40,822 nt of DNA from Methylobacteriaceae bacterium (GTDB taxonomy: Bacteria; Pseudomonadota; Alphaproteobacteria; Rhizobiales; Beijerinckiaceae): positions 1 through 40,822 of the forward strand of contig JAFAVH010000115.1 in NCBI GenBank assembly GCA_019242655.1, written 5' to 3'. Of this stretch, positions 1 to 40,822 are shown in pieces. The notes beneath the pieces were generated by a model. The model did not search any database. It had not been told where the DNA came from and saw nothing but the letters and a program-made list of their open reading frames with translations. Both the position numbers and the translations under genes were made by a program. The stretch's first letter is position 1; every line of letters begins with the position of its first letter.

Positions 1-2
1 AA

Positions 3-290: not shown

Positions 291-327
291 TGTTGGGTTC
301 ACGCAGCGCGCTGGAGGGCGCTCGTCC

Positions 328-2256: not shown

Positions 2257-2302
2257 GCGATTGAGCGGGCGGAGCCCGTGCCGGTAGTCAGCGGAGGAGC
2301 TG

Positions 2303-3905: not shown

Positions 3906-3957
3906 GCCGCACCCCGGACAGCGTGCGGGCGGTGGCTCATCAGCGACTGGGTCGTCA

Positions 3958-5526: not shown

Positions 5527-5527
5527 T

Positions 5528-17787: not shown

Positions 17788-18582
17788 ATGCCAGAGCGGC
17801 TAATGGAACTGGCGATGCGACATGGCGGCCCCCCGCAGGGATCAGCACAGATTTACGCCTTGTCATTGTGGAAGTGCATGACAAATGGCTACCTGGCTAA
17901 GTCTTTAAGCCGCGACGAAGCGGTGTCATGTTTTCTTAGGAACTATGAGTTCCTGGTCAAGAAGGTATCGTGTGAGGGAGTGCTGAAGTTATGCTCGGAT
18001 GATTATGTTCTGTGGGATAATCGAAGATACCACGTTACTGCCAAGATGGAGCATGGCATTCTGGATGAGAGCGAGAATACGCTTCACTTCAAAGAAGGAT
18101 GGCGGGCTATTTACGGAACATCTTTTAGCTTTGTGCCTGGCCATATATTCGGCTCAGACGAGCCTGACGTTATCCTGATCTCTCGCATGCAGGGCAGGGC
18201 GGGTGAAGGAGAAAAGTACTTAGAGGCTACAAAGTCTTGCGGCGACATCACGCCACAGTTCGTGACCTACAATGTACTTTTGGGTCTAGCCAAGACACTA
18301 CGCATACACAGTATTATTGGCGTGGCGGCTCAAAACCAAGTCTATTATAAGGAAGCGCTATCTGATATTTTTATACCGACTTACGATTAATTTTTCCTGT
18401 CACTACTTGGTAAGATCCCACGAGATGGCTTCTTCTGTATATCGACAGCTAATTACCACAGGCCGCTATCTGCAATCGTAAGCTGGCACAGAAGGCGGGC
18501 GAAGAAAAAACGGTTGATGAAAGAGGGGATCATTGAATCCGCGTCAGAGAGATGGCTGCAGTTCTGTGCCAGTGTGGCCTGA
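17788..18582 (+). pseudogene. VirK/YbjX (DUF535)-like gene with an in-frame TAA at 18388..18390, in AT-rich DNA
   Basis: The 200-aa ORF shows ISRMQGRAGEGEKYLEATKSCGDITPQ...LLGLAKTLRIHSIIGVAAQNQ. After the TAA the same frame continues FFLSLLGKIPRDGFFCIS...HRRRAKKKRLMKEGI, as in the family C-terminus. One sampled line (18001..18060) has 26 G+C of 60. Confidence 0.45.
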
Positions 18583-19360
18583 GTCAGCCTCGCGAAACCG
18601 GATCGCCGGACATGGGGCTAATGATAACTACGAGCTGCACCAGCTCTTGCTGAACGCGATTAGCCAATCACCGGGCCGAGCAGCCGCCAGTGGCCAGATA
18701 CATGATCGTCGGCATGTACCACCAGATGAAGGGCGTCAGCGTGAGCTTGTAGGCCAAGCGGCGCGACAGGGTCGGGCTGAGCAAGGACTGCCGGTTCTTC
18801 ACGCGGCGAGGCTAGGACCCCCGTCCGAGGACTCAACGATGCAGTTTGCGCAACGGCAGTCCCAAATGCGATAGGTCGAGGCGAATCGTCTCCGGAAAGG
18901 CGACAGTGCTGCGGCAGCAGCGGAGCCTAGCCATGCACGAGGAGATTGGTCGCCTGTATTTCTAGTCTCGCGCTCGATCTTCGCGCGAATATGCCCGCCT
19001 CTATGGCGACAGTCCGATCGGACTCCTCCATTTCAGGTTTGCAGAGGAATACGATAAAAAGGCCGCAGGTTTGGGTGTTTCGCTGTCGCGCGACGCCGAG
19101 CCTGTTGAATTCGTACCCGGCTGCACATCCGCTCGGCTCTGAGGTCGCTGCGATGGCAGAGTCACTCGTTCCGCTAAACCTCGGTGATCAGGCCGAACCC
19201 AGCACGCGCGGAACCGGCGAGAACATCTGCCCAAAATGCGAAGTGGCGACTTGGACGGTCCCGAATGCGAGTTCTGCGGCGGGACAGGCAAGATAGTTCG
19301 AGGCATAAGCGGCGGCTATATTGCCTCCATTGCCAAAGTATCATGCGCGCATCCTTTTGA

Positions 19361-19857
19361 TCACCGCTCGACCTTGATTTTAAACGCTGACGCCTTCCCC
19401 CGCGCCGCGGCCGCCCGACGATTCAGTGCCTTCGCAATCGTCTCGGCGTCCGAGCCCGTTTCACCCATCTGCGGAAGCAGGGTCAGCTCATCGCGTGACG
19501 AAGCGCGGGTGCCGACATCGCGCATTATCGAGCCAGCCTCAGTCCGAGCTTCACCACCCGCCTTTCAAGGCCGCTTCAGTGCGACCCTGAGCACGTGCGA
19601 TTTCGGTCAGGCTGACACCACTCGTCACGAACCTCCGCAGTTGCTCCTCATCCGCTTCGCTCCAGCGCCGAGCGGGTTTGTTCGAGCTCACCCTCACCTC
19701 GCCACGTTCATCTTCAGCTTTTGAACCTTGCCTCGATACCAGCGATCGTGCGCCCGAGCTCGACCGCTATCTGCTCGATAGATGCCCTCGCGCGCGCCAT
19801 CCTTCGCAGCGTCGCCACGTGTTCGTCGTTCCAGGCTTCGCCGCGGCGGTGAGGCAT
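19361..19857 (-). other. Three tandem Myb/SANT-like helix-turn-helix units, each in a different frame (mini-ORFs 19714..19857, 19551..19697, 19361..19525)
   Basis: The units read AWNDEHVATLRRMARARASIEQIAVELGRTIAGIEARF, RWSEADEEQLRRFVTSGVSLTEIARAQGRTEAALKG and SRDELTLLPQMGETGSDAETIAKALNRRAAAARGK. They fit the pattern W-x3-E-x2-L ... IA-x2-LGRT. Confidence 0.35.
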
Positions 19858-19879
19858 GGCGTTGATGAGACAAGAAATC

Positions 19880-20194
19880 CTCGGCATCGGCCATGTCGTT
19901 CTTCTGTCGCTTCACGTAGGGCTTTACGCAGGCCGGCGCGATCAGCTTCACCTCGTGACCGAGCCGCCCGATCTCGCGCGCCCAGTGCGCGCCGCCGCAT
20001 GCCTCCATCGCCACCGTGCAGCGGGGCAGTTCCGCGAAGAAGCTGAGAAGCTGCTCACGCCGTAGCTTCTTGCGCACAACGACTGCCCCATCGCGATCCG
20101 CGCCATGCACCTGGGATACGTGCTTCGCCGAATCCAGCCCGACTGTGATAATCTGTTCCACGGACGCCTCCTGGGTGGTCTGCAACACCACCAC
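19880..20194 (-). mobile_element. IS110-family transposase, 5' fragment only (about the first 105 codons)
   Basis: ITVGLDSAKHVSQVHGADRDGAVVVRKKLRREQLLSFFAELPRCTVAMEACGGAHWAREIGRLGHEVKLIAPACVKPYVKRQKNDMADAE is the DEDD N-terminal domain of IS110 transposases. Similarity ends after DAE, and the rest of the ORF is an out-of-frame read of the next element. Confidence 0.75.
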
Positions 20195-20202
20195 TCTGGC
20201 AC

Positions 20203-20478
20203 ATGGATGCCGTCGGGGGCGTCCAACCCATCAACCTGTCGGCTCACAAGGGCGCCGCGGTACGTGAGGTGATCGAAGCGGTCGGCGCAAGGCTGCTCTT
20301 CCTCCCGCCCTACAGCCCCGACTTCAACCCGATCGAGATCAAGCTCAAAGCGCACCTCCAAAAAGCCGCCGAGCGCACAATCCACGGCCTCAGGATCGCC
20401 ATCGGACGCATCATCGACCTCTACTCGCCCGAGGAATGCGCCAACTAATTCGCCACCGCCGGCTACGATGCAACGTGA
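20203..20478 (+). mobile_element. IS630-family (DDE_3) transposase, 3' fragment with an in-frame TAA at 20446..20448
   Basis: NLSAHKGAAVREVIEAVGARLLFLPPYSPDFNPIEIKLKAHLQKAAERT...SPEECAN*FATAGYDAT. The PPYSPDFNPIE motif and C-terminus are those of IS630 transposases. The N-terminal two-thirds are absent. Confidence 0.75.
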
Positions 20479-20490
20479 TCAGAAACGGCT

Positions 20491-22488
20491 CTAGCCGGCG
20501 CTGCTCTCGCACAAGAGACGAAGGACGGCACCGCCGACCTCCGCCGGGGTGATGAAGCGCATGCAGGCGAAATTCTGACCGCAATCCTCAAACCGGGTCA
20601 GCGCACAGCCCGCGCACGGGATTCGGCGACTGACGATGAGGCCGTCCCCTTCCTGGCCCCATTCGTTCCAGTTCAGCCGGGGCATGTGCACGCTCACCAC
20701 GCGCGCGCCACGTAACGTGGCGACCTGCTTGGGCCCGGAGTCGTTCCCGACGAAGGCATCGCAGAAGGAGAGCAGCGCGTCAAACGCGTCGAACGGGAGT
20801 CGGCCAACCGCATACTTCAAGCGGTCCACGCCGAGGATCTCCGCAGGCACATCGATATCCTCTTCGCTTTCGCTGAGGATGACGATGGTATGGCTAGTCT
20901 CGCGCAGCAGCCACGCGGCCAGCGCGCCGTAACCGTGCCAGCGGTTGAAGCCAAGCCGCGAACCGGCGTGGAGCACGATGTACCGCTCACCCGCAGCGAT
21001 TCCGAACCGCTGCAGCAGGCTGCGCTCGAGATCGGTCCGCGCAACCACCTGCAGCGGGTTGCTGGTCATCGCGCCCAGCCGCTCGATCAGCGCTACGAGC
21101 TTGCCGGAAAGCGGCGTGTTTTCGAGCTCGTTGGCAGGATCGTGGGAGCGGGTCTCGAGTCCGGCATCGAGCCACGGCGTCTCGCGCTCATTGAACCCAT
21201 AGAGGAAGCGGGCGCCGGACAGCCGCAGGAGCGCGCGCGAATCGGCCGTGTCGATAAGGTCGATCGCGAGGTCGAATCGGAAGCGCGCGAGGGTTCCCTG
21301 CAGTGCGCGCTGTTCCGAGGCTGACATCGTACGACGAGCGAGCGCCGGGTCCTCCGGCAGGCGGATCGTGAGGATCTCGTCGAATAGCCGGAGTGTCGCG
21401 GCGAGTTCGGCATTGGCCGCGCTCAGCAGGCCGACGATGCGCGCCTGCGGGAAGAGGGCGCGGAGCCGTCGCAGGGCCGGGACGGATATGACCAGATCGC
21501 CGAGCTGATCGAAGCGCTGCACGAGAATAGAGTCCATCGGGCCGCCAACCACCGAACGGTCCGCCCGACGGATCATGCTGGCGCGCGCGTTAATCGACGC
21601 CTCGACTTCGCCTCGGCCTGGATCGACCACCGCGTCGGAGCTGGGGCACTCGGCCTCGGTTAATGGTTCCCCGATCCACACCATTTCCGTCAGCGCGCGC
21701 GCGATCCTGCCGCCGTGCTCACGGTATCGCAGTTCGAGCGGGCGCCGTCCGCGCGGCGCCGTCGCGAAGTCGTGCCAGATGTTGAAGACGAACTTGGAAG
21801 GCGCTTGCCCGGACGGCGGCGATGACGGCTGGAGATGCACGGATCGCAACAGCTGGCCGTCGAGCAGCAGCTGTACCTCGACCAATGGCGCTGCGCTCAC
21901 GCAATAGCCGCGGATCGCCTCAACGCCGCGCAACACCCTTCGCCCCCACAGGCCGGACACGCGCCTGGCGCCGAGCCGGAAGAGCTGGACATGCTCCCCC
22001 GGACGGGCGGCTGCCGCGACATCGATCGGAAGAAGTTCCGGGAGCGGCACGTCGCCTTCCACGGCATCATCGTTCGCATCGCCTCGGTCGCGAAGCGAAG
22101 ACAGCTCTTTCAGTGCTTCCGGCCAGCCCGGCTGCAGCTCGAGGGCGCGGCCGTAGAACCGCTGCGCCTCATGCACCCGCCCGATCAGCTTGTTGAAATG
22201 ACCAAGCTGGAGTGCGAGATCGGCGTCGTTCGGCGCGCGTTGGAGCGCGGCTAGATAATAGCGCTCGGCACCCGAATAGTCGCCGCTTTCCTTGTGCATG
22301 TGCGCGCATTGAACGATCACGCGCACCCGATCGGGCGTGAAGCGGAGCGCCTCGGCGTAGAGCGCTGCCGCCACCGCGAAGCGGCCATGGTCTCGTGCCG
22401 CGTCTGCCTTGCGCGAAAGCCGTCGCGACATCGCCAGATTACCGTGCCGAGGGAGGCGATCGATAAGCGTGCGCAAGGGGCTCGGCAT
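20491..22488 (-). CDS. Three-domain TPR / beta-rich / GT9 heptosyltransferase-like protein, paralog 3
   Basis: The longest ORF starts at a TTG at 22590 (699 aa). ATG 22488 is preferred because MPSPLRTLIDRLP...RKADAARDHGRF aligns in length and in the PLRTL motif with paralog 2. Motifs: RGVEAIRGYCVS, KFVFNIWHDF, ILVQRFDQLGDLVISVPALRRLR, FVGNDSGPKQVATLRG, PCAGCALTRFEDCGQNFAC. Confidence 0.85.
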   Translation of the reverse strand: MPSPLRTLIDRLPRHGNLAMSRRLSRKADAARDHGRFAVAAALYAEALRFTPDRVRVIVQCAHMHKESGDYSGAERYYLAALQRAPNDADLALQLGHFNKLIGRVHEAQRFYGRALELQPGWPEALKELSSLRDRGDANDDAVEGDVPLPELLPIDVAAAARPGEHVQLFRLGARRVSGLWGRRVLRGVEAIRGYCVSAAPLVEVQLLLDGQLLRSVHLQPSSPPSGQAPSKFVFNIWHDFATAPRGRRPLELRYREHGGRIARALTEMVWIGEPLTEAECPSSDAVVDPGRGEVEASINARASMIRRADRSVVGGPMDSILVQRFDQLGDLVISVPALRRLRALFPQARIVGLLSAANAELAATLRLFDEILTIRLPEDPALARRTMSASEQRALQGTLARFRFDLAIDLIDTADSRALLRLSGARFLYGFNERETPWLDAGLETRSHDPANELENTPLSGKLVALIERLGAMTSNPLQVVARTDLERSLLQRFGIAAGERYIVLHAGSRLGFNRWHGYGALAAWLLRETSHTIVILSESEEDIDVPAEILGVDRLKYAVGRLPFDAFDALLSFCDAFVGNDSGPKQVATLRGARVVSVHMPRLNWNEWGQEGDGLIVSRRIPCAGCALTRFEDCGQNFACMRFITPAEVGGAVLRLLCESSAG

Positions 22489-22648
22489 TGGCCTAGGGCG
22501 TAGTTGCCGCGCCTGAGGAGAGGAAGACAAATCATGTTGGGCAATCGGTGTCATCGCGCGAGCGGTAGTCGGGGCATCGAGTTGCTGCAATCATAGGCTG
22601 CAAACCCGCGCAGCCGCATCCTTGCGTTGCAATTCGTCGGGCGATCGC

Positions 22649-22778: not shown

Positions 22779-23762
22779 ATGATCCTCGTCACCGGCGCAG
22801 CCGGCTTCATCGGCTCCAACATCGTCGCCTCGCTGAACGAGCGCGGGCGGACTGACATCGCGGTGTGCGATCGCTTCGACGACGCCAATAAGTGGCTCAA
22901 CCTCGCCAAAAGCCTCTTCGTCGATGTCGTGCCGCCCGATGCGCTAGCGGCCTGGCTCGCGAGCGGTCCCAAGCTCAGCGCTGTGGTCCACATGGGGGCC
23001 ATTTCGGCCACGACGGCGAGCGATGGCGACGCAGTCATGGAGACGAATTTCCGCCTTTCGCTACGATTGCTCGATCACTGCACCGCGCACGACGTGCCTT
23101 TCCTCTATGCGTCTTCCGCGGCGGTTTACGGGGACGGCGATTGCGGGTTTGCCGACGATATCACGCCAGCGGCGATCGAGAAGCTGCGCCCGTTGAACCT
23201 CTATGGCTGGAGCAAGCGGCAGTTCGACTATGTGGTGGCCGATCGAGTCGCCCGCGGCGCGAAGCTGCCGCCTGCCTGTGTCGGCTTCCGCTTCTTCAAC
23301 GTGTTCGGCCCCAATGAATATCATAAGGGCGAGATGCAGAGCATCGTTGCCAAGATCGCGGGACCGATCGGCCGCGGCGAGCGGATCACGCTCTTCAAGA
23401 GCCATCGCGAAGGGATCGGCGATGGCGATCAGCGGCGCGATTTCGTCTACGTAAAGGACGCGGTGGACGCGGTGCTGAGCTTTCTCGGGCGGGAGCGGAT
23501 CGCGGGCATCTTCAACATCGGCACAGGAAGTGCGAGAAGCTTCCGGGAGCTTGCCGAGGCGGTCTTCAATGCCTATCAGCGGCCGAGCGCGATCGACTTC
23601 GTCGACACACCGCTGTCGATTCGCGACAAATATCAGTATTTCACGGAAGCGTCGCTCGATCGTCTTCGCCAAGCCGGATGCACGACCGCCTTCCGGCCGT
23701 TGGAGGTTAGCGTCGCGGACTATGTCGGAAGTTATCTTCGGAGCGGCGATCCCTATCGCTGA
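22779..23762 (+). CDS. hldD: ADP-L-glycero-D-manno-heptose 6-epimerase
   Basis: 327 aa. MILVTGAAGFIGSNIV Rossmann start, SSAAVYG, LNLYGWSK (YxxxK), FRFFNVFGPNEYHKG, RDFVYVKD; length and order are typical of HldD/RfaD. Confidence 0.9.
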   Translation: MILVTGAAGFIGSNIVASLNERGRTDIAVCDRFDDANKWLNLAKSLFVDVVPPDALAAWLASGPKLSAVVHMGAISATTASDGDAVMETNFRLSLRLLDHCTAHDVPFLYASSAAVYGDGDCGFADDITPAAIEKLRPLNLYGWSKRQFDYVVADRVARGAKLPPACVGFRFFNVFGPNEYHKGEMQSIVAKIAGPIGRGERITLFKSHREGIGDGDQRRDFVYVKDAVDAVLSFLGRERIAGIFNIGTGSARSFRELAEAVFNAYQRPSAIDFVDTPLSIRDKYQYFTEASLDRLRQAGCTTAFRPLEVSVADYVGSYLRSGDPYR

Positions 23763-24231
23763 GTTCGGCCTCGATGCCATCGCCGGCGTTGTCGCGCGGG
23801 GTCACGGCGTGGCGTCGGGCACGGCGCGCGATCGGCGCTTTCCAAACGGGACGATCCGGCTGCAACTACCCTTCTTCGAAGGCGCGATAGCGAACTTCCA
23901 GGCCTATCTTGGTGGATCGCCTTTTGCCGGCACGATCAACATCGCCGTCGACACGGAGGCGGTCGTGATCATGCGCCCTGAGTTCCGGCTGCCGGAGGTG
24001 CGCTGGACCGACGTCTTCGGGCCCGAGACTTTCTACCTTTCAGCGGCCCAGCTCGTGCACGGCGATGGGCGTTATCCGGTGTTCCTCTACATGCCTGATC
24101 CGGCAAGCAAACCCGATCATCACCAGCCGCGGCAGGTCGTTGAACTGCTTGCGCGCCGCTTGCCCGAGGTCAGCTATGGCAACCGTGTGACGCTACTGTT
24201 TCGGCCCGACGCGATTGCGTTCACGCCATGA
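23722..24231 (+). CDS. Small protein resembling the archaeal CTP-dependent riboflavin kinase (DUF120) beta-barrel fold
   Basis: 169 aa from ATG 23722, overlapping the hldD 3' end by 41 nt. GVVARGHGVASG ... LGGSPFAGTINIAVD ... VVELLARRLPEVSYGNRVTLLF parallels the G-V-SG-G-G ... G-P-GTLN-L ... pattern of RibK/DUF120. The assignment is tentative. Confidence 0.45.
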   Translation: MSEVIFGAAIPIAEFGLDAIAGVVARGHGVASGTARDRRFPNGTIRLQLPFFEGAIANFQAYLGGSPFAGTINIAVDTEAVVIMRPEFRLPEVRWTDVFGPETFYLSAAQLVHGDGRYPVFLYMPDPASKPDHHQPRQVVELLARRLPEVSYGNRVTLLFRPDAIAFTP

Positions 24232-26101
24232 GCCTGCGCATCTCGTTGAACACTTCCTCGACCCCGATCAACCGGATGCAAGCGAAGTCCCGGCCGCATT
24301 CCTCGCCGTTTCGCCCAATTCCACAGCCCGCGCACGGCACGCGCCGGCTGATGATCGATCCGGTTTGCTCTTGCCCCCATTCGTTCCAGCCAAGCCGCGC
24401 CATATGGATGCTGACGACCGGCGTGCCGCGCAGTGCGGCGAGATGCTTTGGACCGGAGTCATTACCGACGAAGATGCGCGCCCGGGACAGAAGAGCATCG
24501 AAATCGTCGAATGCGAGTCGCTCCGGAAGCCTGATCAGCCGTTTCGACGGCCGTTCCTGCTGAATGGGATCCTCACCCATCAGGACGACCTGGAGCGCGG
24601 TCCGCTCAATCAGCACCTGTGCCAGCGAAGCGTAGTGCGGCCAGCGGCTGTAAGCCAGCCGCGCGCCGTTATGCAGGACTGCATATTCGGCCGATGCTTC
24701 GATGCCAAAACGTTCGAGCCGCTGCCCACCGAGCCCCCGGCGCGGCAGTATCTCGGCCGCGCCATACTGAGCTGCGATGAGACCGTTGACAAGCGCGAGC
24801 ATCTTGCGCGACGGCGGGATGGTCTCGCGATAGTTCACCGGATCGTGCGCGTTGATATCAAGGCCGGCGGAGAGCCAGGGCGTGTCGCGGTCGCGAAAGC
24901 CATAAAGAAAGGGCGCGCCTGAGAGCTGCAACAGCGGCCGGGAGCCCGCGCCTTCGCCGAGATCTATGGCAATGTCGAAGCGATAACGGTGCAATGTCGC
25001 CGTGAGCGACGCCTGTGCTTCGACGGTCATCGTCCGACGTTCGTCGTGGCCATTGTCCGCGAACGCGCAGGTCACCACCTCGTCGACGAAGTCGAGCGTC
25101 CAGGCGAGCTCGGTATTCGCGTCGCTGACGAGCAGCACGATGCGCGCGTCGGGAAAGCCTGAACGCAGGCGGCGAAGCGCTGGGATCGAGCAGACAAGAT
25201 CGCCGAGCTGATCTGCGCGCTGCACGAGAATGGTGCGCGGCTGCGCAAGCAACGAACGCCGCGCCGATCGGATGACGCTGGTCCGCCCGTTGATCGCCGC
25301 CTCCAGACCGCCGGTGTCCGCTTGCGCCGGCGACACGAGGGCATCCGAGTCCGGGTGATCGGCGGCGGGCGGCGGGGCAATGGTCAGGACGGTGCGATAG
25401 GAGCGGGAGCGCCGACCCTGCTCCGCGAAGCGTAGCTCGATATCCTTGCTGCCGGGCGTCAGCCCCGACACGTCGCACCAGATATTGAATACGTATTTCG
25501 TTCTTGCCGATGCCGGCAGAGGCAGCGCCTGGAGCGGTTCGCGATGGAAAACGACGCCATCGATCAGGACGAGCAGCTCGGCCGCGCTCCCACTGCCGAT
25601 CGCGAAACCATGAATCGCCTCAACTCCGCTGAGGACGCGGGCGAATCCGCTCGCCGTGCGCGCTCGCTTCGCGCCAAGCCGGCGGACATGGACGCCGAAG
25701 CCCGGTTCGCTGGGCTTGCCACTCGCGGCGAGAAGCTCGGGTACAAGGGAAACCGATCCCTCGGCGCATGAATTCGGCTCAGCAGCGGCCCGGAAGCTTC
25801 GAACCTGGCGGGTCAGCTCGGGATTGGTCGGAGCAAGCCGGAGCGCTTGCTGGTAGAGCCGCTCGGCCCCGGCGTCATTCCCCAGCTCGCTATGCATATG
25901 CGCAAAATGGGCCAGGATGCGCGGATCGGCGGGCGCAAGTCGCGTCGCCTCTTCATAAAGGACGCTCGCCGCCTCGAACCGCTGCGCATCGCGTGCGCGG
26001 TTTGCTCGCAGCATCAGCCGATGTGCCATGCCACCTCGCGACAGGCTGGGAAGATAGGACAGCGCGATCCGAACCATCGTCGAGGGCGAGGCTATGGCCA
26101 T
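24221..26101 (-). CDS. Three-domain TPR / beta-rich / GT9 heptosyltransferase-like protein, paralog 4
   Basis: 626 aa. TPRs (AASVLYEEATRLAPADPRILAHFAHMHSELGNDAGAERLYQQALRLAPTNPEL). Also SGVEAIHGFAIGS, KYVFNIWCDVS, ILVQRADQLGDLVCSIPALRRLR, FVGNDSGPKHLAALRG, PCAGCGIGRNGEECGRDFAC. Confidence 0.85.
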   Translation of the reverse strand: MAIASPSTMVRIALSYLPSLSRGGMAHRLMLRANRARDAQRFEAASVLYEEATRLAPADPRILAHFAHMHSELGNDAGAERLYQQALRLAPTNPELTRQVRSFRAAAEPNSCAEGSVSLVPELLAASGKPSEPGFGVHVRRLGAKRARTASGFARVLSGVEAIHGFAIGSGSAAELLVLIDGVVFHREPLQALPLPASARTKYVFNIWCDVSGLTPGSKDIELRFAEQGRRSRSYRTVLTIAPPPAADHPDSDALVSPAQADTGGLEAAINGRTSVIRSARRSLLAQPRTILVQRADQLGDLVCSIPALRRLRSGFPDARIVLLVSDANTELAWTLDFVDEVVTCAFADNGHDERRTMTVEAQASLTATLHRYRFDIAIDLGEGAGSRPLLQLSGAPFLYGFRDRDTPWLSAGLDINAHDPVNYRETIPPSRKMLALVNGLIAAQYGAAEILPRRGLGGQRLERFGIEASAEYAVLHNGARLAYSRWPHYASLAQVLIERTALQVVLMGEDPIQQERPSKRLIRLPERLAFDDFDALLSRARIFVGNDSGPKHLAALRGTPVVSIHMARLGWNEWGQEQTGSIISRRVPCAGCGIGRNGEECGRDFACIRLIGVEEVFNEMRRLMA

Positions 26102-26157: not shown

Positions 26158-27615
26158 TCAGCGCCCGCTGGATGTCGCGACCAGCCGGCTCGTCGAATGG
26201 CCGGCGCTGAGATCGGCGAGCACGACACGACCACCCCGCGCCTGTACGACGTCGGCACCCGCGACCTGCTCGATCGTATAATCGGCGCCTTTGATCAGCA
26301 CGTCCGGCTTGAGCGCCTCGATCAGCTCGCGTGGCGTGTCCTCATCGAAGATTACGACCGCTGCGACACCCTTCAAGGCACCCATCACGATCGCACGCGA
26401 CTGCTCGTCCTGGACGGGACGCGTTTCGCCCTTCAGTCGCTGTACTGACGCATCCGAATTGAGCGCCACGATTAGCCGATCGCACGCGCTCGCCGCCTGC
26501 TGCAGTAGCGAAACATGGCCGGGGTGCAGCAGGTCGAAGCAGCCGTTCGCGAATCCCACCGTTAGCCGTTCGCGCGCCCAGGCCCATCGCAGCGCGACCA
26601 TCGCATCAGGGCTCAGGAGCCGGCCATCTTCGACCCCAGAGGAGACATTCTCAGCTTGGATCGAGCCGGAAAGTTCATCGCAGCTGACGCTCGCCGTTCC
26701 GAGCTTCGAAACGACTATGCCCGCCGCATGATTCGCGAGCCGCATGCACTCGAGCATAGGGAGATTGGCGGCGAGGGCCGCGGCGAGCACGGCGACAACA
26801 GTATCGCCGGCGCCGGAGACGTCAAAAACATTCTGCGCGGCCGTGGCAAGATGGGTGGGGCCACCATCGGTTGGGAAAAAGGACAGGCCCTTTTCCGAGC
26901 GGGTGAGGAGGATGTGGGCGCCCGAAACCTTCTGAGCGCGCGCTGCCGCGGCCGCCGCTTCCTCGTCCGTCTCGCAAGGCAGGCCGGTTGCATCTGACAA
27001 TTCCTTGCGGTTGGGAGTGAGGATCGAGGCGCCGTGGTAGGCGGCGAGGTCCAGGCGCTTCGGATCGACAATGACCTTCTTCGACGAGGATCGCGCGTGG
27101 TCGATCACCGCACGCAGCACGCTGTCGGTACAGACGCCCTTGCCATAATCAGATATAACAACGGCATGGGCATCATCGATCGCCCCCCGGGCCGCTGCGA
27201 TCAACCGTCCCTCGAGGTCGGTCCCTAGCGGCAGCATGTCCTCATGATCGACCCGCACGATTTGTTGATGCGCTCCGATTATCCGCAGCTTGCGGGTCGT
27301 ACGGCGATCGTCGGTCTCTATGATCCGGGAGCAGTCGACTTCCCCCAAGCCGCAGATCGCATCGATCAACTCAGCGCGGACCGAGTCGCGCCCGGCAAGC
27401 CCCACGAGGTTCACACCGACATGCAAGCTCGCCAGGTTAGCCGCGACGTTGGCGGCGCCTCCGGGAACGGAATGCTCGTTCACGACGCGCATCACGGGAA
27501 CGGGCGCCTCGGGCGAGATGCGGCTGACCTCGCCCATCATGTAGCAATCGAGCATGACGTCGCCGATCACCGCAATGCGGCTCGACTGAAGCAGTTCGAC
27601 GGGTGGGTGGATCAC
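26158..27615 (-). CDS. hldE: Bifunctional D-glycero-beta-D-manno-heptose-7-phosphate kinase / heptose-1-phosphate adenylyltransferase
   Basis: 485 aa. The N-terminal ribokinase-like domain has VIGDVMLDCY ... GGAANVAANL ... VFDVSGAGDTV. The C-terminal cytidylyltransferase-like domain has GFANGCFDLLHPGHVSLL ... VIFDEDTP. The GTG start overlaps the upstream stop (GTGA at 27612..27615). Confidence 0.92.
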   Translation of the reverse strand: MIHPPVELLQSSRIAVIGDVMLDCYMMGEVSRISPEAPVPVMRVVNEHSVPGGAANVAANLASLHVGVNLVGLAGRDSVRAELIDAICGLGEVDCSRIIETDDRRTTRKLRIIGAHQQIVRVDHEDMLPLGTDLEGRLIAAARGAIDDAHAVVISDYGKGVCTDSVLRAVIDHARSSSKKVIVDPKRLDLAAYHGASILTPNRKELSDATGLPCETDEEAAAAAARAQKVSGAHILLTRSEKGLSFFPTDGGPTHLATAAQNVFDVSGAGDTVVAVLAAALAANLPMLECMRLANHAAGIVVSKLGTASVSCDELSGSIQAENVSSGVEDGRLLSPDAMVALRWAWARERLTVGFANGCFDLLHPGHVSLLQQAASACDRLIVALNSDASVQRLKGETRPVQDEQSRAIVMGALKGVAAVVIFDEDTPRELIEALKPDVLIKGADYTIEQVAGADVVQARGGRVVLADLSAGHSTSRLVATSSGR

Positions 27616-28802
27616 GATTTGATACCTATTTCGAGCTGATCCCGCGCACCGATCGCTTCGCTGGGCTCGCGAGAAGCAAGTTCGGTAGCAGCGACGAACA
27701 AATGGTAGAGCGTGCTCGCCGGAACATAGTCGACGAGTGGCCGGCGCTTGTCGTCAAGGTGGTCGATCCAGCCTCCGGCGAACGGGTGTCCGACGAAATT
27801 CTCGAGAAGAGTTCCTGCCATCGCTTCTGCCAGTTCGCGTGAGCCCGGAGCGCCGGCGCGCTCCTGAGCGACGGCAGCCTTGATCGCTTCGGTATGCGGC
27901 CAGACCCTGTGCGAGGACTTGATGATGACGCGATCGGTGTTGAGCTCGTCATGGATTAGGCCGTGGTCGGAGATCCCGCAATCCCGCGCGGTCGCGTGTA
28001 GGCGCCCGGCGCGCAGCGTCGTGTCCGCTTGGCAAAGGCGATCATATTCGGAGAGGAGCCAGCACCATTCGAAATGATGCCCCGGCTCGAACACATGCGC
28101 ACGCTTGACATCGGGGTGAAACGTCCAAGCTTCGTCGAAATGCTCGATAAGGTACTCGTCTCGCACCAAGCGGCGATCCAGCAGCTCGACTAGCTGGCTG
28201 GCGCGCTCGCGATAGCCGCGCCCCGGCGCAGCCGCTTCGAGGGCAAGATATGCCTCGAGAAAATGCATGAGCGGGTTCTGGCGCTTGGTGCGCACGGTAA
28301 TCGGTGCCGCATCGTAGAGACCGCCGTGGGTCACATCGGTGAGCTCGCTATCGATGAAGCCGATGATCCGTTCCGCGAGCACCAGCAGCGCGGCATCGCC
28401 GGTCAGTTGATACACCCACGCTATCGCTAGCAGCACGAATGCGTGGGTATAGGCGTCGCGGTCCGTCGATAGCGGTCGTCCTGCGCCATCCACCGAGAAG
28501 ATGAAGGAGGAGGTCCTGCCGTTGCTCGAGCCGTAGGTCCTCAGCAACGACTCCAGGGCTCTCGAGGCGAGCTCCGCACCTGGCTCGAACCAGCCGAGCT
28601 TCGCCGCATGCGCGTACACGTAGATCTGGCGGGACTGCACCATCGCGCGCTGGGGCACGTCCAAGGGCCGACCCGCGAAGTCTAGACGCTCATGAAAGCG
28701 ATGGCGCACTGTATCGAACCCACCGCTTGCCCAAAATGGCAGCGCCTCATTGATCACCCATTCTAGATAGACTCGTGCTCGGCCTGCGAGAGCGCCTCTC
28801 AC
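27612..28802 (-). CDS. AGE-superfamily (N-acylglucosamine 2-epimerase / aldose-ketose isomerase-like) enzyme
   Basis: Motifs: LPFWASGGFD ... RFHERLD, RAMVQSRQIYVYAHA, DAYTHAFVLLAIAW, NPLMHFLEAYLAL, EPGHHFEWCWLL, RVWPHTEAIKA, ASTLYHL. GTG 28802 overlaps the gmhB stop (GTGA at 28799..28802). The longest ORF runs to 28862. Confidence 0.8.
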   Translation of the reverse strand: MRGALAGRARVYLEWVINEALPFWASGGFDTVRHRFHERLDFAGRPLDVPQRAMVQSRQIYVYAHAAKLGWFEPGAELASRALESLLRTYGSSNGRTSSFIFSVDGAGRPLSTDRDAYTHAFVLLAIAWVYQLTGDAALLVLAERIIGFIDSELTDVTHGGLYDAAPITVRTKRQNPLMHFLEAYLALEAAAPGRGYRERASQLVELLDRRLVRDEYLIEHFDEAWTFHPDVKRAHVFEPGHHFEWCWLLSEYDRLCQADTTLRAGRLHATARDCGISDHGLIHDELNTDRVIIKSSHRVWPHTEAIKAAVAQERAGAPGSRELAEAMAGTLLENFVGHPFAGGWIDHLDDKRRPLVDYVPASTLYHLFVAATELASREPSEAIGARDQLEIGIKS

Positions 28803-29407
28803 CCTATCTCTCCGAAGGCATGTTCGGCCAGCATGCTTCTGACGCTCGCCGCGAGATCGCACGCGTTCGTCTCCACCAGCAGAGCTGGAACGCCCGCGGC
28901 CGCGGCGGCATCGAGGTCGCTCTGCCGGTCGCCGATCATGAAGCTTCCTTCTCGGCGGATAGGGAGATCGCGCATCGCCTGCATGAGCATGCCGGAACCC
29001 GGCTTGCGGGTATCATGCTCTATCGCGAAGGCCGGAATCGTGCCGTCCGGATGATAGGGGCAATAGTAGAATCGATCGATGCGAGCGCCCTGCTCGCTAA
29101 GCGTTCGCAGCATCTGGTCATGAAAGCGTTCCACATCCTCGACCCCGTAATGGCCGCGCGCGATGCCCGACTGGTTCGTGACGACGATCACGAAGTAGCC
29201 AGCGGCATTGAGGAGGCGAACGGCCTCGACGGCGGTGGGGGTGAACCGCAAGTCTTCCGGCCGGTGGGTGAAGCCCATGTCCACGTTGAGCACGCCGTCG
29301 CGATCGAGGAACGCGGCGGCACGCGCGTCCTGTTCGGCATACCGGGCGACCGCCGCCCGATTGGCCGAAGGAAGGCCACGGTGCCGCGCGCCAAGTTCAG
29401 GCGGCAT
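28799..29407 (-). CDS. gmhB: D-glycero-beta-D-manno-heptose-1,7-bisphosphate 7-phosphatase
   Basis: AAFLDRDGVLN (HAD motif I), VIVVTNQSGIARGHY, CPYHPDG, RKPGSGML, FMIGDRQSDLDAA. The start overlaps the kpsE stop by 11 nt. Confidence 0.88.
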   Translation of the reverse strand: MPPELGARHRGLPSANRAAVARYAEQDARAAAFLDRDGVLNVDMGFTHRPEDLRFTPTAVEAVRLLNAAGYFVIVVTNQSGIARGHYGVEDVERFHDQMLRTLSEQGARIDRFYYCPYHPDGTIPAFAIEHDTRKPGSGMLMQAMRDLPIRREGSFMIGDRQSDLDAAAAAGVPALLVETNACDLAASVRSMLAEHAFGEIG

Positions 29408-30575
29408 GCTCGCGCACGCCTGCGACGATCAGCCAGCCAATCGAGTAAGCGAGCAGGAGCGCGATCAGCAGCGTGATCAGGATGCGACCGCGCTCTGGAT
29501 AAAGCGACTGAACCGGCATGTTGGGCTCCACCACCCGGACGAGATAGAGCTGCTGCCGAAGCGCCTGCTCGCGCGCGCGCTCGAGGTTGCTCGCCGCGGC
29601 GTCATAGCGCTTGCTGAGGAACTGCTGCCGCAGCTGGAGCCCTTCATAGCTTCCGATATCGGCCGCGATCGCTTGATTCCCGCCAGTCAACCGTCCGAAC
29701 TGCGCCGCGACCTGTGCGGACAAGGCATCGACGCGGGACTGGAGCGCCTTGAACTGCGGGCTGTTGTGATTGATCATCTGGCCCATCGACGCGAGCTGCG
29801 CGCGCGCCGCCGAGAGTTGCGCCGTGAGCGTCGAAACTAGAGTGATCTGGGCCTGTCCCGACGCCGCTGGATCGATGTCGCGACGATTTTGCCGGAAGTT
29901 GGTCAGCTGGATCTGCGACTGAGCGAGCGCTGCTTCGGCATCGGCCAGCTGCCGGCGCGACATGCCGATAGCATCCTCGTAGCTGCGCCGGTTGAGGACG
30001 TTCACCCGCTCTTCACCCAGCTGCAGCAGCCGGCTTATAAGAAGAAAAGCGTCATCCGGCCTGAACGCGCGCACCGTTACGGTGGCGATGCCGCTGTCGG
30101 CATCAATGGCGACCTGCACATGCCGGCGATAATATTTGAGGAGCTGCTCAGGCGTCGGATCGGACGACCACAGCCTGCTGAACGGGTCAATGCCGGGAAG
30201 GGTGAAGCGCTCGATGAGCCGATCCTTTGCTCTGAGCGTCGCGACGGCGTCATGCGATGTTAGGTAGTCGGCAACGCTCATCGCGTCATTCTGGCTGCCA
30301 GACATGCCGGCCATCGCACCCAATGCAGCCGGTATGCCGGGCGTGCCTGGTTTGGCGCTGTCAACCGAGTGGACCAGAAAATGCGCCTCGGAGACGTACT
30401 GGTCCGATGCGAACACATAGAGATAGGTGGCCGTGATCAGAAGCGGCAAAGCGACGACCAGCAGGAAGAGGCGGCGGCGCCATGCCCATTGCTGGATCCG
30501 CTCGCGATAGGTGCGGCGCGGCTCCTGATAAGACGGGTCCACCGGAGTCATAATGCCGTGCATGTTCATGCTCAA
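29397..30575 (-). CDS. kpsE: Capsule polysaccharide export inner-membrane protein (PCP-3, KpsE/CtrB/RkpR-like)
   Basis: 392 aa. N-terminal TM (LFLLVVALPLLITATYLYVFASDQYVSEAHFLV), a long coiled periplasmic region, and a C-terminal TM (ILITLLIALLLAYSIGWLIV). Confidence 0.85.
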   Translation of the reverse strand: MSMNMHGIMTPVDPSYQEPRRTYRERIQQWAWRRRLFLLVVALPLLITATYLYVFASDQYVSEAHFLVHSVDSAKPGTPGIPAALGAMAGMSGSQNDAMSVADYLTSHDAVATLRAKDRLIERFTLPGIDPFSRLWSSDPTPEQLLKYYRRHVQVAIDADSGIATVTVRAFRPDDAFLLISRLLQLGEERVNVLNRRSYEDAIGMSRRQLADAEAALAQSQIQLTNFRQNRRDIDPAASGQAQITLVSTLTAQLSAARAQLASMGQMINHNSPQFKALQSRVDALSAQVAAQFGRLTGGNQAIAADIGSYEGLQLRQQFLSKRYDAAASNLERAREQALRQQLYLVRVVEPNMPVQSLYPERGRILITLLIALLLAYSIGWLIVAGVREHAA

Positions 30576-30609: not shown

Positions 30610-31425
30610 TTATCCCAGATGCAGCTTGTGACGAAGTGTCCGCACGCAAACGAGCCCGGTCCAGGTTAGGATGGCGCACGCTGCCACGAGATATTCGCCG
30701 TAGAAATAATCCAGTTTAGCCGCGCTGAACTGACCGTAGCGGGCAAGCTCAAAGATGCTTGTAATAGGCAGGTAGCTCAGCCAGTCACGATAGGGATGCG
30801 GCAGCCAGGCGAGCGGGATGAACGCGCCCGACAGACCCACCATGAAATAGGAGTAGGGGTGGACGAGGCGCCCGATGGTCCGGTTCTCGTACGAGATCGC
30901 TGTGATAACGAGCGAATGACCGAAGGAATACCAGAACATGAGGCCCCATGCGGCCAACAGCGCCAACGGCCTCACCGGCGGATTGGCGAGCCTGAGGCAG
31001 ATGATCAGCGTCATCAGGATGACGAAGGTCAAGAAGACGCCGGCAAACTCCAGAAGCGCCCGCGCGATCGTAATATCGAGGATGGTGACCTGCCGGTGAT
31101 AGAGTAGCGGCGCGTTCGCTTCGAGGCTCCCCTCCGATCGGTTGACGATACCGCGGAAGAGGATGAACACGGTATATCCGAGGACGGCGAACGGCAGCGC
31201 CTTCATGTCGCCGCCATGACCGGCGTGCGACGAGGCGGAGTGAAGCAGTCCGATCACCGTGGCAAGCATCATCGGTTCGCCGACCAGCCATAGATAGCCC
31301 ACATTCTCGCGGCCGTAGCGCGTGTGGAGCTCGCGCAGGATAAGTGCTCCGATAACGCGGCTTTGGATCGCAAGAGCATCGAAGAAGCTGCCGCGCGCCG
31401 ATTGCGGGAATGGGACGCTACTCAT
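30610..31425 (-). CDS. kpsM: Capsule polysaccharide ABC-2 transporter permease (KpsM-like)
   Basis: 271 aa. LILRELHTRYGRENVGYLWLVGEPMM start and six predicted TM segments, the ABC-2 permease pattern. The start overlaps the upstream GT gene stop by 8 nt. Confidence 0.88.
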   Translation of the reverse strand: MSSVPFPQSARGSFFDALAIQSRVIGALILRELHTRYGRENVGYLWLVGEPMMLATVIGLLHSASSHAGHGGDMKALPFAVLGYTVFILFRGIVNRSEGSLEANAPLLYHRQVTILDITIARALLEFAGVFLTFVILMTLIICLRLANPPVRPLALLAAWGLMFWYSFGHSLVITAISYENRTIGRLVHPYSYFMVGLSGAFIPLAWLPHPYRDWLSYLPITSIFELARYGQFSAAKLDYFYGEYLVAACAILTWTGLVCVRTLRHKLHLG

Positions 31426-32635
31426 TCACAGCCCTATGCAACATGTTGAGCACGATGGCGAGATGCTCAGGCCAGGTCGGCGCGCGCCACGCGGCGCTGC
31501 GTTGTCGCTGCGCCGCGGCGAGAGCGGAACCCGGCGACGCAAGATCTTGGATGGCGGCCTGCCAGCCAAGCCCGTCGAGCGGATCGAGATAGAGAGGGAC
31601 ATCGCCGCCCGCCTCGCGCAGCGCCGGCAGATCGCTGCAGAGCACCGGCACCCCCGCCGCCAACGCCTCTGCAACCGGCATACCGAAGCCTTCGGCAAAG
31701 GACGGCAGCAGCAGCCCGGCAGCGCCCGCAAGCAGCGACTGCGTCGCGCGATCGCCCAACCGCCCCTTCTCCTCGACGTAGCCGGCGAGCGTCGGGCATC
31801 TTTCAAGCATGTCGATGACCTGCTCGTTCTCCCAACCGCGCCGGCCGACGAGTATGAGCTTCGGCACGTTCTCCGGGCGCTGCCGTTCGGCTAGCCGGCG
31901 CCACAGGTTCAGCAGGAGAAGATGGTTCTTCCGTGGCTCGATCGTGCCGATGCACAGGAAGTAGGGCGGCTGCATTGAGACAGCGGCGGTCGCATCGCGG
32001 AGGCCGCTCATGGTGCCGAGCCGCGCCACGTCGATGAGCGGCAATCGATTGGAACGAGCCAACCAGGGCTGCAGCGACGCCAGGGTTGCCTGAGAATTCG
32101 CGATGATTCCGCTGGCCTGTTGAGTAATCGTGAGGATCCGCTCGCGATGCAGCCGAGCGCCGTTAGGGCGCGCATATTCCGGATATTCGAGCGGGATGAG
32201 GTCGTGGACCAGGCAGACGAAGCGCGCTCGCTCGCGCCGCAAGATATCGGCGACTAGGTTGGGCTGCGTGAGATTGTTAGGCGATGCCTGAAGATAGACC
32301 CGCCGCGCGCCGCTCGCCGGCGGCTTGGGGAAGCGCAAGCTAGGCGAGAGCCGAAGCCACCAATACGCGGCGAACCGACGCGATCTGCCGTCGCCGCCGC
32401 CTGCCTGGTCCCAGCGCTCCTCGGTCGCGGCGAGGAAGGCGAGCACCGCGTCTCTGCGCAATCGGCCGTAGACGCCGCTCGGGTGGACGGCGGCGAACGC
32501 CACCCGCCGCTCCGGCAGAAGCTCGAGAAGGCCGCGGGCATAGGCCATCTCAACGCGATCCACACCCGTCGGCGTCGAGTGCAGCAGTCGCGACAGCAAC
32601 CGCGAAAGATCGAGGACAACCTCAGCTTCCTTCAT
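31418..32635 (-). CDS. Glycosyltransferase, GT-B fold (Glycos_transf_1 / CAZy GT4-like)
   Basis: 405 aa. FFLCIGTIEPRKNHLLLL ... ILVGRRGW ... LLLPSFAEGFGMPVAEALAAGVPVLCSDLPALREAGG (EX7E region). Confidence 0.85.
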   Translation of the reverse strand: MKEAEVVLDLSRLLSRLLHSTPTGVDRVEMAYARGLLELLPERRVAFAAVHPSGVYGRLRRDAVLAFLAATEERWDQAGGGDGRSRRFAAYWWLRLSPSLRFPKPPASGARRVYLQASPNNLTQPNLVADILRRERARFVCLVHDLIPLEYPEYARPNGARLHRERILTITQQASGIIANSQATLASLQPWLARSNRLPLIDVARLGTMSGLRDATAAVSMQPPYFLCIGTIEPRKNHLLLLNLWRRLAERQRPENVPKLILVGRRGWENEQVIDMLERCPTLAGYVEEKGRLGDRATQSLLAGAAGLLLPSFAEGFGMPVAEALAAGVPVLCSDLPALREAGGDVPLYLDPLDGLGWQAAIQDLASPGSALAAAQRQRSAAWRAPTWPEHLAIVLNMLHRAVNE

Positions 32636-32946: not shown

Positions 32947-33270
32947 TCAGGGTTCCGCGGACAGGTCGGGAGCCGATTGCTTTGAGGGAGGCGGAGGCTT
33001 CAGCGGGTGAACGCCTGGCTTCTGGTATCCCGCTTCATTTCCTGGCAGCACGTCGCCGCCGCTATCGTCCTGCGCGCCGCAGCAATCCTGCGCCATCTGC
33101 GCGTTCGAAGCGGCAGCATCCGCTTTTTCGACCTGCTCGAGCTTGGCCTGCGTCTCGGCCAGTTCCGCCTGAAGAACCCGGACTTGCCGCTGCAGATTGG
33201 CGTCGGGGCGGCTGCATGCCGACACGAGCAGCGCGGCGACTGCAAAGATGATCGAATACGGCCGGCTCAT
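32947..33270 (-). CDS. Small lipoprotein with a coiled-coil segment and Pro-rich tail
   Basis: 107 aa from ATG 33270. Signal peptide plus lipobox MSRPYSIIFAVAALLVSAC, then LQRQVRVLQAELAETQAKLEQVEKA, then KPPPPSKQSAP. It is the last third of a 381-aa ORF whose upstream part is antisense to the WcbI-like gene. Confidence 0.6.
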   Translation of the reverse strand: MSRPYSIIFAVAALLVSACSRPDANLQRQVRVLQAELAETQAKLEQVEKADAAASNAQMAQDCCGAQDDSGGDVLPGNEAGYQKPGVHPLKPPPPSKQSAPDLSAEP

Positions 33271-33396
33271 GATTGGCGCATAGCAGCGCCCCGAGGAAGG
33301 AGTAAGCCGCCGTGGCCTGGCGGCGACCTGATTGTTGCCGTGCACCGCGTAAGAGTGGATAGATGCCGCCGTCGCATTCCGGAGGATGGACAAGCG

Positions 33397-34467
33397 TTGA
33401 AGATCGCCTTCGTGGGCAACTGCCAGGCTCACTCGCTCTGGTTCATCTATGACCGCTACTTCGGTTCGCGGCTTGGTCAGGCGACCGTGTTCGTGGACGG
33501 GTGGAAACGGGATTCGCTGGCCGAGAGCAACCGCGCTCTGGCGGAAGCCGACATCGTGATCGCTCAGCTGTTCACCGGCCCGATGGGCGCGGAACTGGAC
33601 CGGCCACGAGCCGGAGCCAAAGTCATAAGGTTTCCGGACGTCCGCGGCAGCTTTCTTTGGCCTTATGGAAACGAGCCACGTCCGGACAATCCCGTCACGC
33701 CGTTCATGACGAGCGGTCCCTATGACCCGGAAGTCGGAGACCGCTTTCTCAACCGAATGATTCGCGACGGTGTCGCTCCCGAAGAGGCGCTCGATCGCTA
33801 CCTCGCGCATGACGTGGTGCGCGAAACCAATCTGTCGCGCCTGTTCGAGATCATGGTAGATCAGCAGCGCGTCCGAGACGCCGCGACGGGAATGACGACT
33901 GCCGATTTCATTCTCGAACGCTTGCAGTGCGAGCGCCTCTTCCGAACGCAAGGTCACCTCGAGAAAACCTTGTTCGATCACCTCGCCAGGCAAGTCTACG
34001 CTAGGATGGACATCGCGCTCGATGAGATTGACGCAGCGCTTGCGCGAGAGCTTCATCATCCTTTCACGCCATTCCATGACGCGCCAATCCATCCCGCGGT
34101 GACTGCTTATTTCAGACTCAATTACCTAGGCTCCAAGCCGCGCTTCTACCATTTGCATGAAGGTAGGTTCACGTTCGAAGAATACGTGCTGCGCTATATG
34201 CGCAACCAATGGTGTCCGGACCTTCACCAGGCGTGCGCGCGGCTCGACCACCCGGATCATGAGCAAACGCTCGCACTGTTCGACCGGGCTTTTCAGTTGG
34301 TGACGGACTGCGGACATGGCTACGAAAAGAAGGCCCACCTTCTATGGACCCTCGGCCGTTTTCACGAGGCGGTGGAGGCGATGGAGCATGCGCTCGCACG
34401 GGAGCCCGGCTATGGTTACTACGAGGCAGTCCTGGAGCATCACCGCCGCTGGGCCGAGAACGGCTAG
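33397..34467 (+). CDS. WcbI-like domain protein, paralog 3 (short, at most one or two TPR-like helices)
   Basis: TTG 33397 is preceded by GGAGGA (33381..33386). MKIAFVGNCQAHSL, FLWPYGNEP, GPYDPEVGDRFLNRMIRDGVAPEEALDRYL and EGRFTFEEYVLRYMR are colinear with the two 530-aa paralogs. The longest ORF (from 33007) overlaps the lipoprotein gene. Confidence 0.65.
   Translation: MKIAFVGNCQAHSLWFIYDRYFGSRLGQATVFVDGWKRDSLAESNRALAEADIVIAQLFTGPMGAELDRPRAGAKVIRFPDVRGSFLWPYGNEPRPDNPVTPFMTSGPYDPEVGDRFLNRMIRDGVAPEEALDRYLAHDVVRETNLSRLFEIMVDQQRVRDAATGMTTADFILERLQCERLFRTQGHLEKTLFDHLARQVYARMDIALDEIDAALARELHHPFTPFHDAPIHPAVTAYFRLNYLGSKPRFYHLHEGRFTFEEYVLRYMRNQWCPDLHQACARLDHPDHEQTLALFDRAFQLVTDCGHGYEKKAHLLWTLGRFHEAVEAMEHALAREPGYGYYEAVLEHHRRWAENG

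Positions 34468-34553: not shown

Positions 34554-40822
<6,269 letters not shown>

Follow-up and report, generated by a model that had tools for sequence, protein, structure and literature searches.

The route to the bacterial heptoses is considered to begin universally with the isomerisation of sedoheptulose-7-phosphate by GmhA, whether these sugars are destined for the inner core of lipopolysaccharide (LPS), for capsules, for S-layer glycans, or for heptose antibiotics. In the heptose capsule and S-layer clusters of Burkholderia pseudomallei (wcb), Campylobacter jejuni, and Aneurinibacillus the gene for this step is a SIS-type gmhA, which lies in the order gmhA-hddA-gmhB-hddC or gmhA-hldE. 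The locus described here is on contig JAFAVH010000115.1 from a Methylobacteriaceae bacterium and was analyzed over its whole length of 40.8 kb, which we call the window. Like the wcb-type clusters it is a dedicated cluster in which a nucleotide-heptose pathway lies beside transferases and Kps-type export genes, and it also encodes a WcbI-domain protein, a family named after the heptose capsule locus of B. pseudomallei. Whereas the wcb-type clusters carry gmhA, the window and the loci related to it have in that place a gene for a protein of the AGE superfamily. We propose that this AGE protein is an AGE-fold sedoheptulose-7-phosphate isomerase that is a non-orthologous replacement of GmhA. With its substrate and product inferred from sequence and gene context, we put the probability of this reading at roughly 0.7. 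Full-text searches of the literature found no description of an AGE-fold sedoheptulose-7-phosphate isomerase or GmhA analogue. Neither the enzyme family nor the pathway is new in itself; what appears to be new is their combination, in which the first step is replaced by a non-orthologous enzyme.

The AGE gene encodes 396 amino acids and belongs to a co-directional string of genes on the minus strand, GT4-kpsM-kpsE-gmhB-AGE-hldE-GT9. The junctions were read from the DNA. The GTG start of the AGE gene at 28802-28800 lies within the gmhB stop in a GTGA overlap, and its TGA stop at 27614-27612 shares another GTGA with the GTG start of hldE at 27615. An independent gene call on an overlapping contig (ENA ERZ27313870, k141_205445) gave the same 396-amino-acid product. 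The AGE gene and the ADP-heptose module that adjoins it are as follows.

27612-28802, minus strand: AGE-superfamily protein, proposed sedoheptulose-7-phosphate isomerase (GmhA analogue), from PF07221, the model fold, the catalytic residues, and the GTGA overlaps.
28799-29407, minus strand: GmhB-like HAD-IIIA phosphatase (heptose 1,7-bisphosphate 7-phosphatase), NF006506 at 153.7 bits and TIGR00213 at 141.4 bits.
26158-27615, minus strand: HldE, bifunctional heptose-7-phosphate kinase/heptose-1-phosphate adenylyltransferase, TIGR02198 at 356.2 (cutoff 345), TIGR02199 at 182.9 (cutoff 181.5), PfkB and CTP_transf_like domains.
22779-23762, plus strand: HldD, ADP-glyceromanno-heptose 6-epimerase, TIGR02197 at 372.8 (cutoff 274.6).

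Both domains of HldE and HldD are thus above their TIGRFAM cutoffs. The GmhB-like protein is slightly under the TIGR00213 cutoff of 149.6 and likewise just under that of NF006506, but it passes TIGR01656 (129.5 against 84).

A gmhA gene was looked for in two ways, with a profile hidden Markov model (HMM) made from five solved GmhAs, which was run on the six-frame translation of the window, and by tblastn with the E. coli GmhA sequence that is 100% identical to PDB 2I22. Neither search found gmhA in the 40.8-kb window. The GmhA HMM also had no match in any of 91 AGE-bearing loci, among which AGE and gmhA were never seen together. This negative result is meaningful because the same HMM, as a positive control, detected two alphaproteobacterial GmhAs at 1e-58 and 1e-65. 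Hence the preliminary description of this DNA was correct in stating that the window has no gmhA and that an AGE enzyme sits between gmhB and hldE with 4-nucleotide overlaps on both sides. Presumably, the genomes that bear the AGE gene have no gmhA elsewhere either.

In a library of 1.8 billion proteins, the family to which the AGE protein belongs has some 1,190 representative clusters (E <= 1e-30). For the comparison, 80 genome loci with 10-kb flanks, several metagenome loci, and annotated plasmid regions were used. The closest homologues are in Sphingomonas, Methylocapsa, Methylocella, Lichenihabitans, and Gemmatimonadales. Homologues with 45-58% identity are found at 24 loci (window included); in 21 of these hldE is within 6 kb, mostly immediately downstream of AGE, and in nine gmhB is immediately upstream of it. 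The remaining three are two loci that end at a contig edge (L007 and L015) and one (L021) in which the roughly 2.7 kb available downstream contain no hldE. Often the AGE-hldE pair is alone with no other heptose gene nearby (L002, L006, L011, and L013). Since the genes beyond the pair vary among hosts, it is the AGE-hldE pair itself that is the unit kept. Rhizobium and Pararhizobium have the order hldD ... AGE-hldE ... gmhB, in which AGE and hldE overlap by ATGA. By PGAP annotation of plasmids from isolates, the order is HAD-HldE-AGE on the 44-kb plasmid pSJF2-c of Gluconobacter sphaericus, which also has Kps-type export genes, HldE-AGE-HAD adjoining rfaD on a Sulfitobacter plasmid, and HldE-HAD-AGE on a Gemmobacter plasmid. 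A second clade, at about 40% identity, is found in GDP-heptose clusters, where a GHMP kinase (HddA-like) and a GDP-mannose-4,6-dehydratase-like gene (dmhA) are accompanied by AGE and then by a fusion of an NTP-transferase with a GmhB-like HAD (hddC/gmhB). That the arrangement of AGE, gmhB, and hldE is seen again in so many unrelated genomes argues that it is not due to chance.

Two observations on individual homologues are recorded here. In Methylocella sp. the similarity to hldE downstream of AGE, close to where the contig ends, falls into two parts that are not in one frame (L007 9464-9884 and L008 3906-4326), and this hldE may be frameshifted or decaying. A 56% identical homologue, P0038, is listed under the moss Ceratodon purpureus, as a hypothetical protein encoded on a contig of chromosome scale (16.6 Mb); either horizontal transfer or contamination of the assembly with bacterial DNA could account for it.

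Gene fusions link the AGE domain to the same pathway. A GmhB-like HAD precedes the AGE domain in four proteins (P0076, P0110, P0275, and P0355) and follows it in two (P0297 and P0393), and the HAD parts of these fusions are 36-59% identical to the GmhB of the window. Because the two domains are joined in both orders, there must have been at least two independent fusion events. A plasmid of Rhizobium sp. CC-CFT758 encodes an 890-amino-acid AGE::PfkB::cytidylyltransferase protein, that is, AGE::HldE. The order in this cluster is pyruvyl transferase-AGE::hldE-GT9-HAD, while that on plasmid p1 of Sagittula sp. MA-2, where there is no neighbouring AGE gene, is gmhA-hldE-GT9-HAD-pyruvyl transferase. 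From this comparison, AGE is seen to hold the gmhA slot in a similarly ordered cluster. Plasmid p5 of Azospirillum brasilense has rfaD-hldE-SIS and no AGE.

Two other long homologues were noted. In P0276 (665 amino acids) an N-terminal ABC-transporter ATPase, possibly KpsT-like, is followed by an AGE domain with 42% identity to the window protein; this fusion may be genuine or an artefact of gene calling. P0271 (830 amino acids) has 434 Ala-rich residues without a Pfam match, and the AGE domain that follows them shares 52% identity with the window protein.

Non-orthologous replacement of GmhA had been one of the options offered in the preliminary description, and it is this option that gained support. 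Across many lineages, and with the gene order shuffled, the AGE gene travels with hldE, gmhB, and hldD or with hddA, hddC, and gmhB. Its product is joined to GmhB-like domains and in one case to HldE, it takes the position of gmhA, and it is without gmhA in the 91 loci.

The only Pfam match of the AGE protein is PF07221, at 190.5 bits against a cutoff of 23.4 and over profile positions 2-347 of 347. Its AlphaFold2 model (pLDDT 94.8) has about 12 long helices in an (alpha/alpha)6 barrel. The structural neighbours of the model are glucose 2-epimerase, cellobiose 2-epimerase, mannose isomerase, and sulfoquinovose isomerase YihS, with Foldseek TM scores of 0.78-0.86 to 8H1L, 3WKF, 5X32, and 7AG4 at identities of only 16-26%. 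No NCBIfam equivalog model was passed, the scores being 47.7 against 800 for cellobiose 2-epimerase, 44.8 against 600 for mannose isomerase, and 37.2 against 600 for N-acylglucosamine 2-epimerase (AGE). By these scores the window protein is outside the characterized cellobiose 2-epimerase, D-mannose isomerase, and N-acylglucosamine 2-epimerase subfamilies. Neither Pfam nor the GmhA HMM detected a SIS domain or similarity to GmhA in it, and it is therefore at most an analogue of GmhA and not a member of that family. GmhA (E. coli 2I22, P. aeruginosa 1X92) is an alpha/beta SIS domain of about 190 amino acids that uses bound zinc, whereas AGE-fold isomerases use a His pair without metal. Between these two proteins, which differ in fold and length and have no sequence similarity, the proposed reaction and place in the pathway would be the same, the gene neighbours hldE, gmhB, hldD, and GT9 are the same, and the positions are interchangeable, as Sagittula and Rhizobium illustrate.

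The active site of the characterized enzymes is retained. R58, H180, H242, and E245 of the window protein align with R66, H200, H259, and E262 of the Rhodothermus marinus enzyme RmCE (3WKF), and R58, H242, E245, and H367 align with R55, H248, E251, and H383 of YihS. All five residues, R58, H180, H242, E245, and H367, are invariant in 83 family members, as are R52, Q59, Q175, E220, E239, H243, W246, R299, K308, D347, and Y366. RmCE and the glucose 2-epimerase 8H1L, which are the best PDB matches in sequence and structure (E of 1e-32 with a profile, TM 0.85-0.86), share the catalytic Arg, His, His, and Glu, but they are only 16-26% identical, act on unphosphorylated substrates, have an unrelated genomic context, and are without R52, R299, and K308, at which positions RmCE carries G, H, and V. 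The extra conserved basic residues of the window family would fit an anionic (phosphate) substrate, and that R52, R299, and K308 bind the phosphate is our conjecture.

YihS (7AG4, 2RGK) shares the fold (TM about 0.8) and the catalytic residues of the window protein at 18-21% identity. This aldose-ketose isomerase acts on a sugar that ends in an anionic group at C6 and also forms the manno epimer; its sulfonate pocket is R55-Q362-Q379 (PMC8006165). This pocket was considered as a model for a phosphate site. Its equivalents in the window protein are R58-D347-S363, and because of this the anion site is not a simple copy of that of YihS and a simple transfer of the pocket is unsupported. The two proteins would also differ in role, since YihS is catabolic with a sulfonate substrate and the window protein is proposed to be biosynthetic.

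In the pathway that we propose, the AGE protein would act as a metal-independent aldose-ketose isomerase on a phosphosugar. It would open the ketose ring of sedoheptulose-7-phosphate, a proton would be moved between C1 and C2 via a cis-enediol by H242 and H367 with the assistance of R58 and E245, as in YihS and the 2-epimerases, and D-glycero-D-manno-heptose-7-phosphate would be released. The kinase domain of HldE would phosphorylate this product at C1, GmhB would take off the 7-phosphate, the adenylyltransferase domain of HldE would adenylylate the heptose, and HldD would epimerize C6. Four proteins with TPR and GT9 domains would presumably build a heptose-rich polymer from it, and Kps proteins would export this polymer on an rkp-type lipid anchor.

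Not all members of the family are linked to heptose genes. Members at 33-40% identity without heptose genes adjoin a phosphomannomutase gene, as in Rhodopseudomonas palustris, adjoin manC, or are fused to the C-terminus of ManC. In the fusions, examples of which are found in Mesorhizobium and on pSymB of Sinorhizobium meliloti 1021 (CAC49061.1), an NTP-transferase domain and the ManC beta-helix are followed by AGE, which is in the place usually taken by the cupin phosphomannose isomerase in bifunctional guanylyltransferase/isomerase enzymes. The ManC::AGE proteins are of the same family as the window protein, with 33-37% identity and all of the invariant residues including R52, R299, and K308, but they are tied to manC and manB whereas the window gene is tied to gmhB, hldE, and hldD. 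Their label from PGAP and IMG is 'mannose-1-phosphate guanylyltransferase/mannose-6-phosphate isomerase'. The chemistry this implies, from a ketose phosphate to a manno-aldose phosphate, would be the hexose counterpart of the GmhA reaction. Because of the ManC fusions and the phosphomannomutase neighbours, the family, taken together, would seem to consist of phosphosugar aldose-ketose isomerases that yield manno-configured aldose phosphates. The conversion of sedoheptulose-7-phosphate to D-glycero-D-manno-heptose-7-phosphate is the same reaction with a substrate that is one carbon longer.

The S. meliloti locus (pSymB 718382-722288; L091 4267-8173) consists of a phosphomannomutase gene followed by the gene for the 767-amino-acid ManC::AGE protein, with IS66 downstream, and has no annotation in PLSDB. 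Schmidt and co-workers (Gene 122:35) reportedly described the Pmi of R. meliloti in 1992 as a phosphomannose isomerase of a 'new type'. We regard this Pmi as a probable AGE-fold protein; a homologue search with the AGE domain of S. meliloti pSymB and an exact-sequence look-up gave the ManC::AGE protein and no other.

These relatives raise the question whether the window protein is an ordinary AGE-fold mannose-6-phosphate isomerase that converts fructose-6-phosphate to mannose-6-phosphate, for the polymer or for general metabolism, with gmhA located elsewhere. Besides the ManC fusions and the phosphomannomutase neighbours, this reading has in its favour that no residue separates the heptose-linked from the mannose-linked members, and it agrees with the JGI label 'mannose-6-phosphate isomerase' on many homologues, which public annotation otherwise calls 'AGE family epimerase/isomerase'. 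For the window gene, we consider it improbable. No ManC or phosphomannomutase homologue was found within 3 kb of the AGE gene by tblastn, family scans of the long open reading frames (ORFs) found no manC or manB elsewhere in the window, and none of the 24 closest loci, almost all of which are hldE-linked, is linked to manC. It also leaves the translational coupling to gmhB and hldE unexplained, and the homologues are joined not just to ManC but to GmhB-like domains and once to HldE. Mannose supply, which the preliminary description had named as the conventional alternative, is thus the apparent role of other family members but does not suit a gene that has no manB or manC and is embedded among heptose genes.

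It is also unlikely that the window protein is a C2 epimerase, which would convert D-glycero-D-manno-heptose-7-phosphate or another heptose intermediate to its gluco epimer and so place an unusual heptose in the polymer, while a canonical gmhA elsewhere in the genome carried out the first step. C2 epimerization is common among AGE-superfamily enzymes, the nearest structural matches are 2-epimerases, and the products of YihS include the C2 epimer as well as the ketose (PMC8006165). However, HldE and HldD both fit the standard equivalog models for manno-heptose, and the lone AGE-hldE pairs are easier to understand if AGE provides the substrate of HldE than if it acts as a modifier. Proteins of this type go with both the ADP and the GDP routes, and one takes the position of gmhA in a cluster of similar gene order. 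The ManC fusions suggest that a manno product is made and not removed, and the epimerase reading would require a gmhA that was not seen. A C2 epimer of the heptose, also suggested in the preliminary description, therefore found no positive support.

That the protein acts on an unphosphorylated sugar or oligosaccharide, for example in salvage or remodelling of the polymer, with the heptose linkage being due to co-regulation only, is very improbable, because although all biochemically characterized AGE-superfamily members in the PDB use unphosphorylated substrates, the window protein has scores of 37-48 bits against cutoffs of 600-800 for the cellobiose 2-epimerase, mannose isomerase, and AGE equivalogs and is 16-26% identical to those enzymes, the fusion partners of its family (GmhB-like phosphatase, HldE, and ManC) all handle sugar phosphates, and the family has its own invariant Arg and Lys residues.

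Several points weigh against a GmhA replacement. The first concerns specificity. No alignment column separates 45 heptose-linked members from 10 mannose-linked members, and in a rough neighbour-joining distance tree, which was used for interleaving only and not for counts of origins, the two kinds are interleaved. R52, Q59, E220, E239, R299, K308, and D347 are common to both kinds among the 83 members. Since no column splits them, sequence alone cannot assign the substrate, and specificity for a seven-carbon substrate is unsupported at this level. Either the enzymes take both substrates or the difference in specificity is a subtle one. Because both kinds have the same invariant residues, the window enzyme may also isomerize fructose-6-phosphate to mannose-6-phosphate. 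The second concerns the anion. YihS is inactive on glucose-6-phosphate (PMC8006165), and a position of its anion pocket is held in the window protein by Asp347, which is neither basic nor an amide. The third concerns the genomic evidence. Many of the linked loci are orthologous and hence are not independent observations. The AGE::HldE fusion is in one genome only, its close relatives having separate genes with an ATGA overlap, and either a single-base change or an error in sequencing could have produced it; for this reason it was given less weight. Lastly, these organisms may have an unlinked gmhA beyond the loci examined, as gmhA is not linked to hldE in E. coli.

The rest of the window contains the following features.

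24221-26101, minus strand: TPR and GT9 (heptosyltransferase-family) protein of 626 amino acids directly downstream of hldE, PF01075 at 61 bits and TPR repeats.
20491-22590, minus strand: paralogous TPR and GT9 protein of 699 amino acids, PF01075 at 37.9 bits and TPR, 50% identical to the product of 24221-26101.
7052-9121 and 9118-11178, plus strand: two tandem TPR and GT9 paralogues, TIGR02193/02201-like matches, PF01075 and TPR.
29397-30575, minus strand: KpsE-like capsule ABC-export component (TIGR01010 at 253 bits, NF050053 at 98 bits, and PF01061, jointly with the next).
30610-31425, minus strand: KpsM-like capsule ABC-export component of the same operon.
31418-32635, minus strand: GT4 glycosyltransferase, first gene of the co-directional string, PF13692/PF00534.
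33007-34467, plus strand: WcbI-domain protein, PF18588 at 63.7 bits.
34554-36062, minus strand: BioF/RkpG-like acyltransferase, TIGR00858 at 341 bits.
35938-40470, minus strand: large polyketide synthase (PKS)-like protein, from its translation and the synteny of the acyltransferase/PKS pair with Sphingomonas sp. (L004).

The four TPR and GT9 paralogues, of about 630-700 amino acids, have N-terminal TPR, a middle region without assignment, and C-terminal GT9, and are probably polymerizing heptosyltransferases of an uncharacterized type. Three such genes follow hldE in Sphingomonas sp. GCA_003248515.1 (L004). In the same locus (1-4131) a PKS-like and BioF/RkpG-like pair precedes GT4-kpsM-kpsE-gmhB-AGE-hldE, as it does in the window; we take this pair to resemble the rkp-1 capsule region of Sinorhizobium, that is, rkp-type lipid-anchor genes. 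The WcbI-domain protein has C-terminal TPR, and the long antisense ORF that overlaps its gene (32947-34092, minus strand) is probably spurious. An FkbH-domain protein (328-2256, plus strand), an FkbM-family methyltransferase (15985-17214, minus strand), and a GT90-like protein (5483-6433, plus strand) suggest glyceryl-type and methyl modifications or extra sugars on the polymer. The window is about 63% GC, but between the two halves of the polysaccharide cluster, at 17000-20500, the GC fraction falls to 0.56-0.57; this stretch carries a gene for a DUF535 protein (17788-18390) and what is left of a DDE_3 transposase (20203-20448), and may represent the boundary of an island or the scar of an insertion. 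The contig is from a metagenome, and the sequencing runs that match it are from rock and root metagenomes only, with a low word share.

Beyond this locus, we favour, though with some reserve, the view that AGE-fold proteins are a widespread and unrecognized second class of sedoheptulose-7-phosphate isomerase. This class would perhaps have arisen several times from AGE-fold phosphomannose-isomerase-like ancestors, and would move between phyla as a module with HldE on the ADP route or with HddA and HddC on the GDP route, enabling bacteria without gmhA, including the LPS-less sphingomonads, to make heptose polymers. ADP-heptose is also an innate-immune signal that is sensed by ALPK1. If our proposal is true, genome-based predictions of heptose and ADP-heptose miss Alphaproteobacteria, Gemmatimonadota, and many plasmid-borne capsule clusters, and organisms with the AGE-type enzyme would be outside the reach of GmhA-directed inhibitors. 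These would also be the first phosphosugar and heptose activities for the AGE superfamily, and a new annotation could be given to several hundred database entries whose present label is 'mannose-6-phosphate isomerase' or 'AGE family epimerase/isomerase'.

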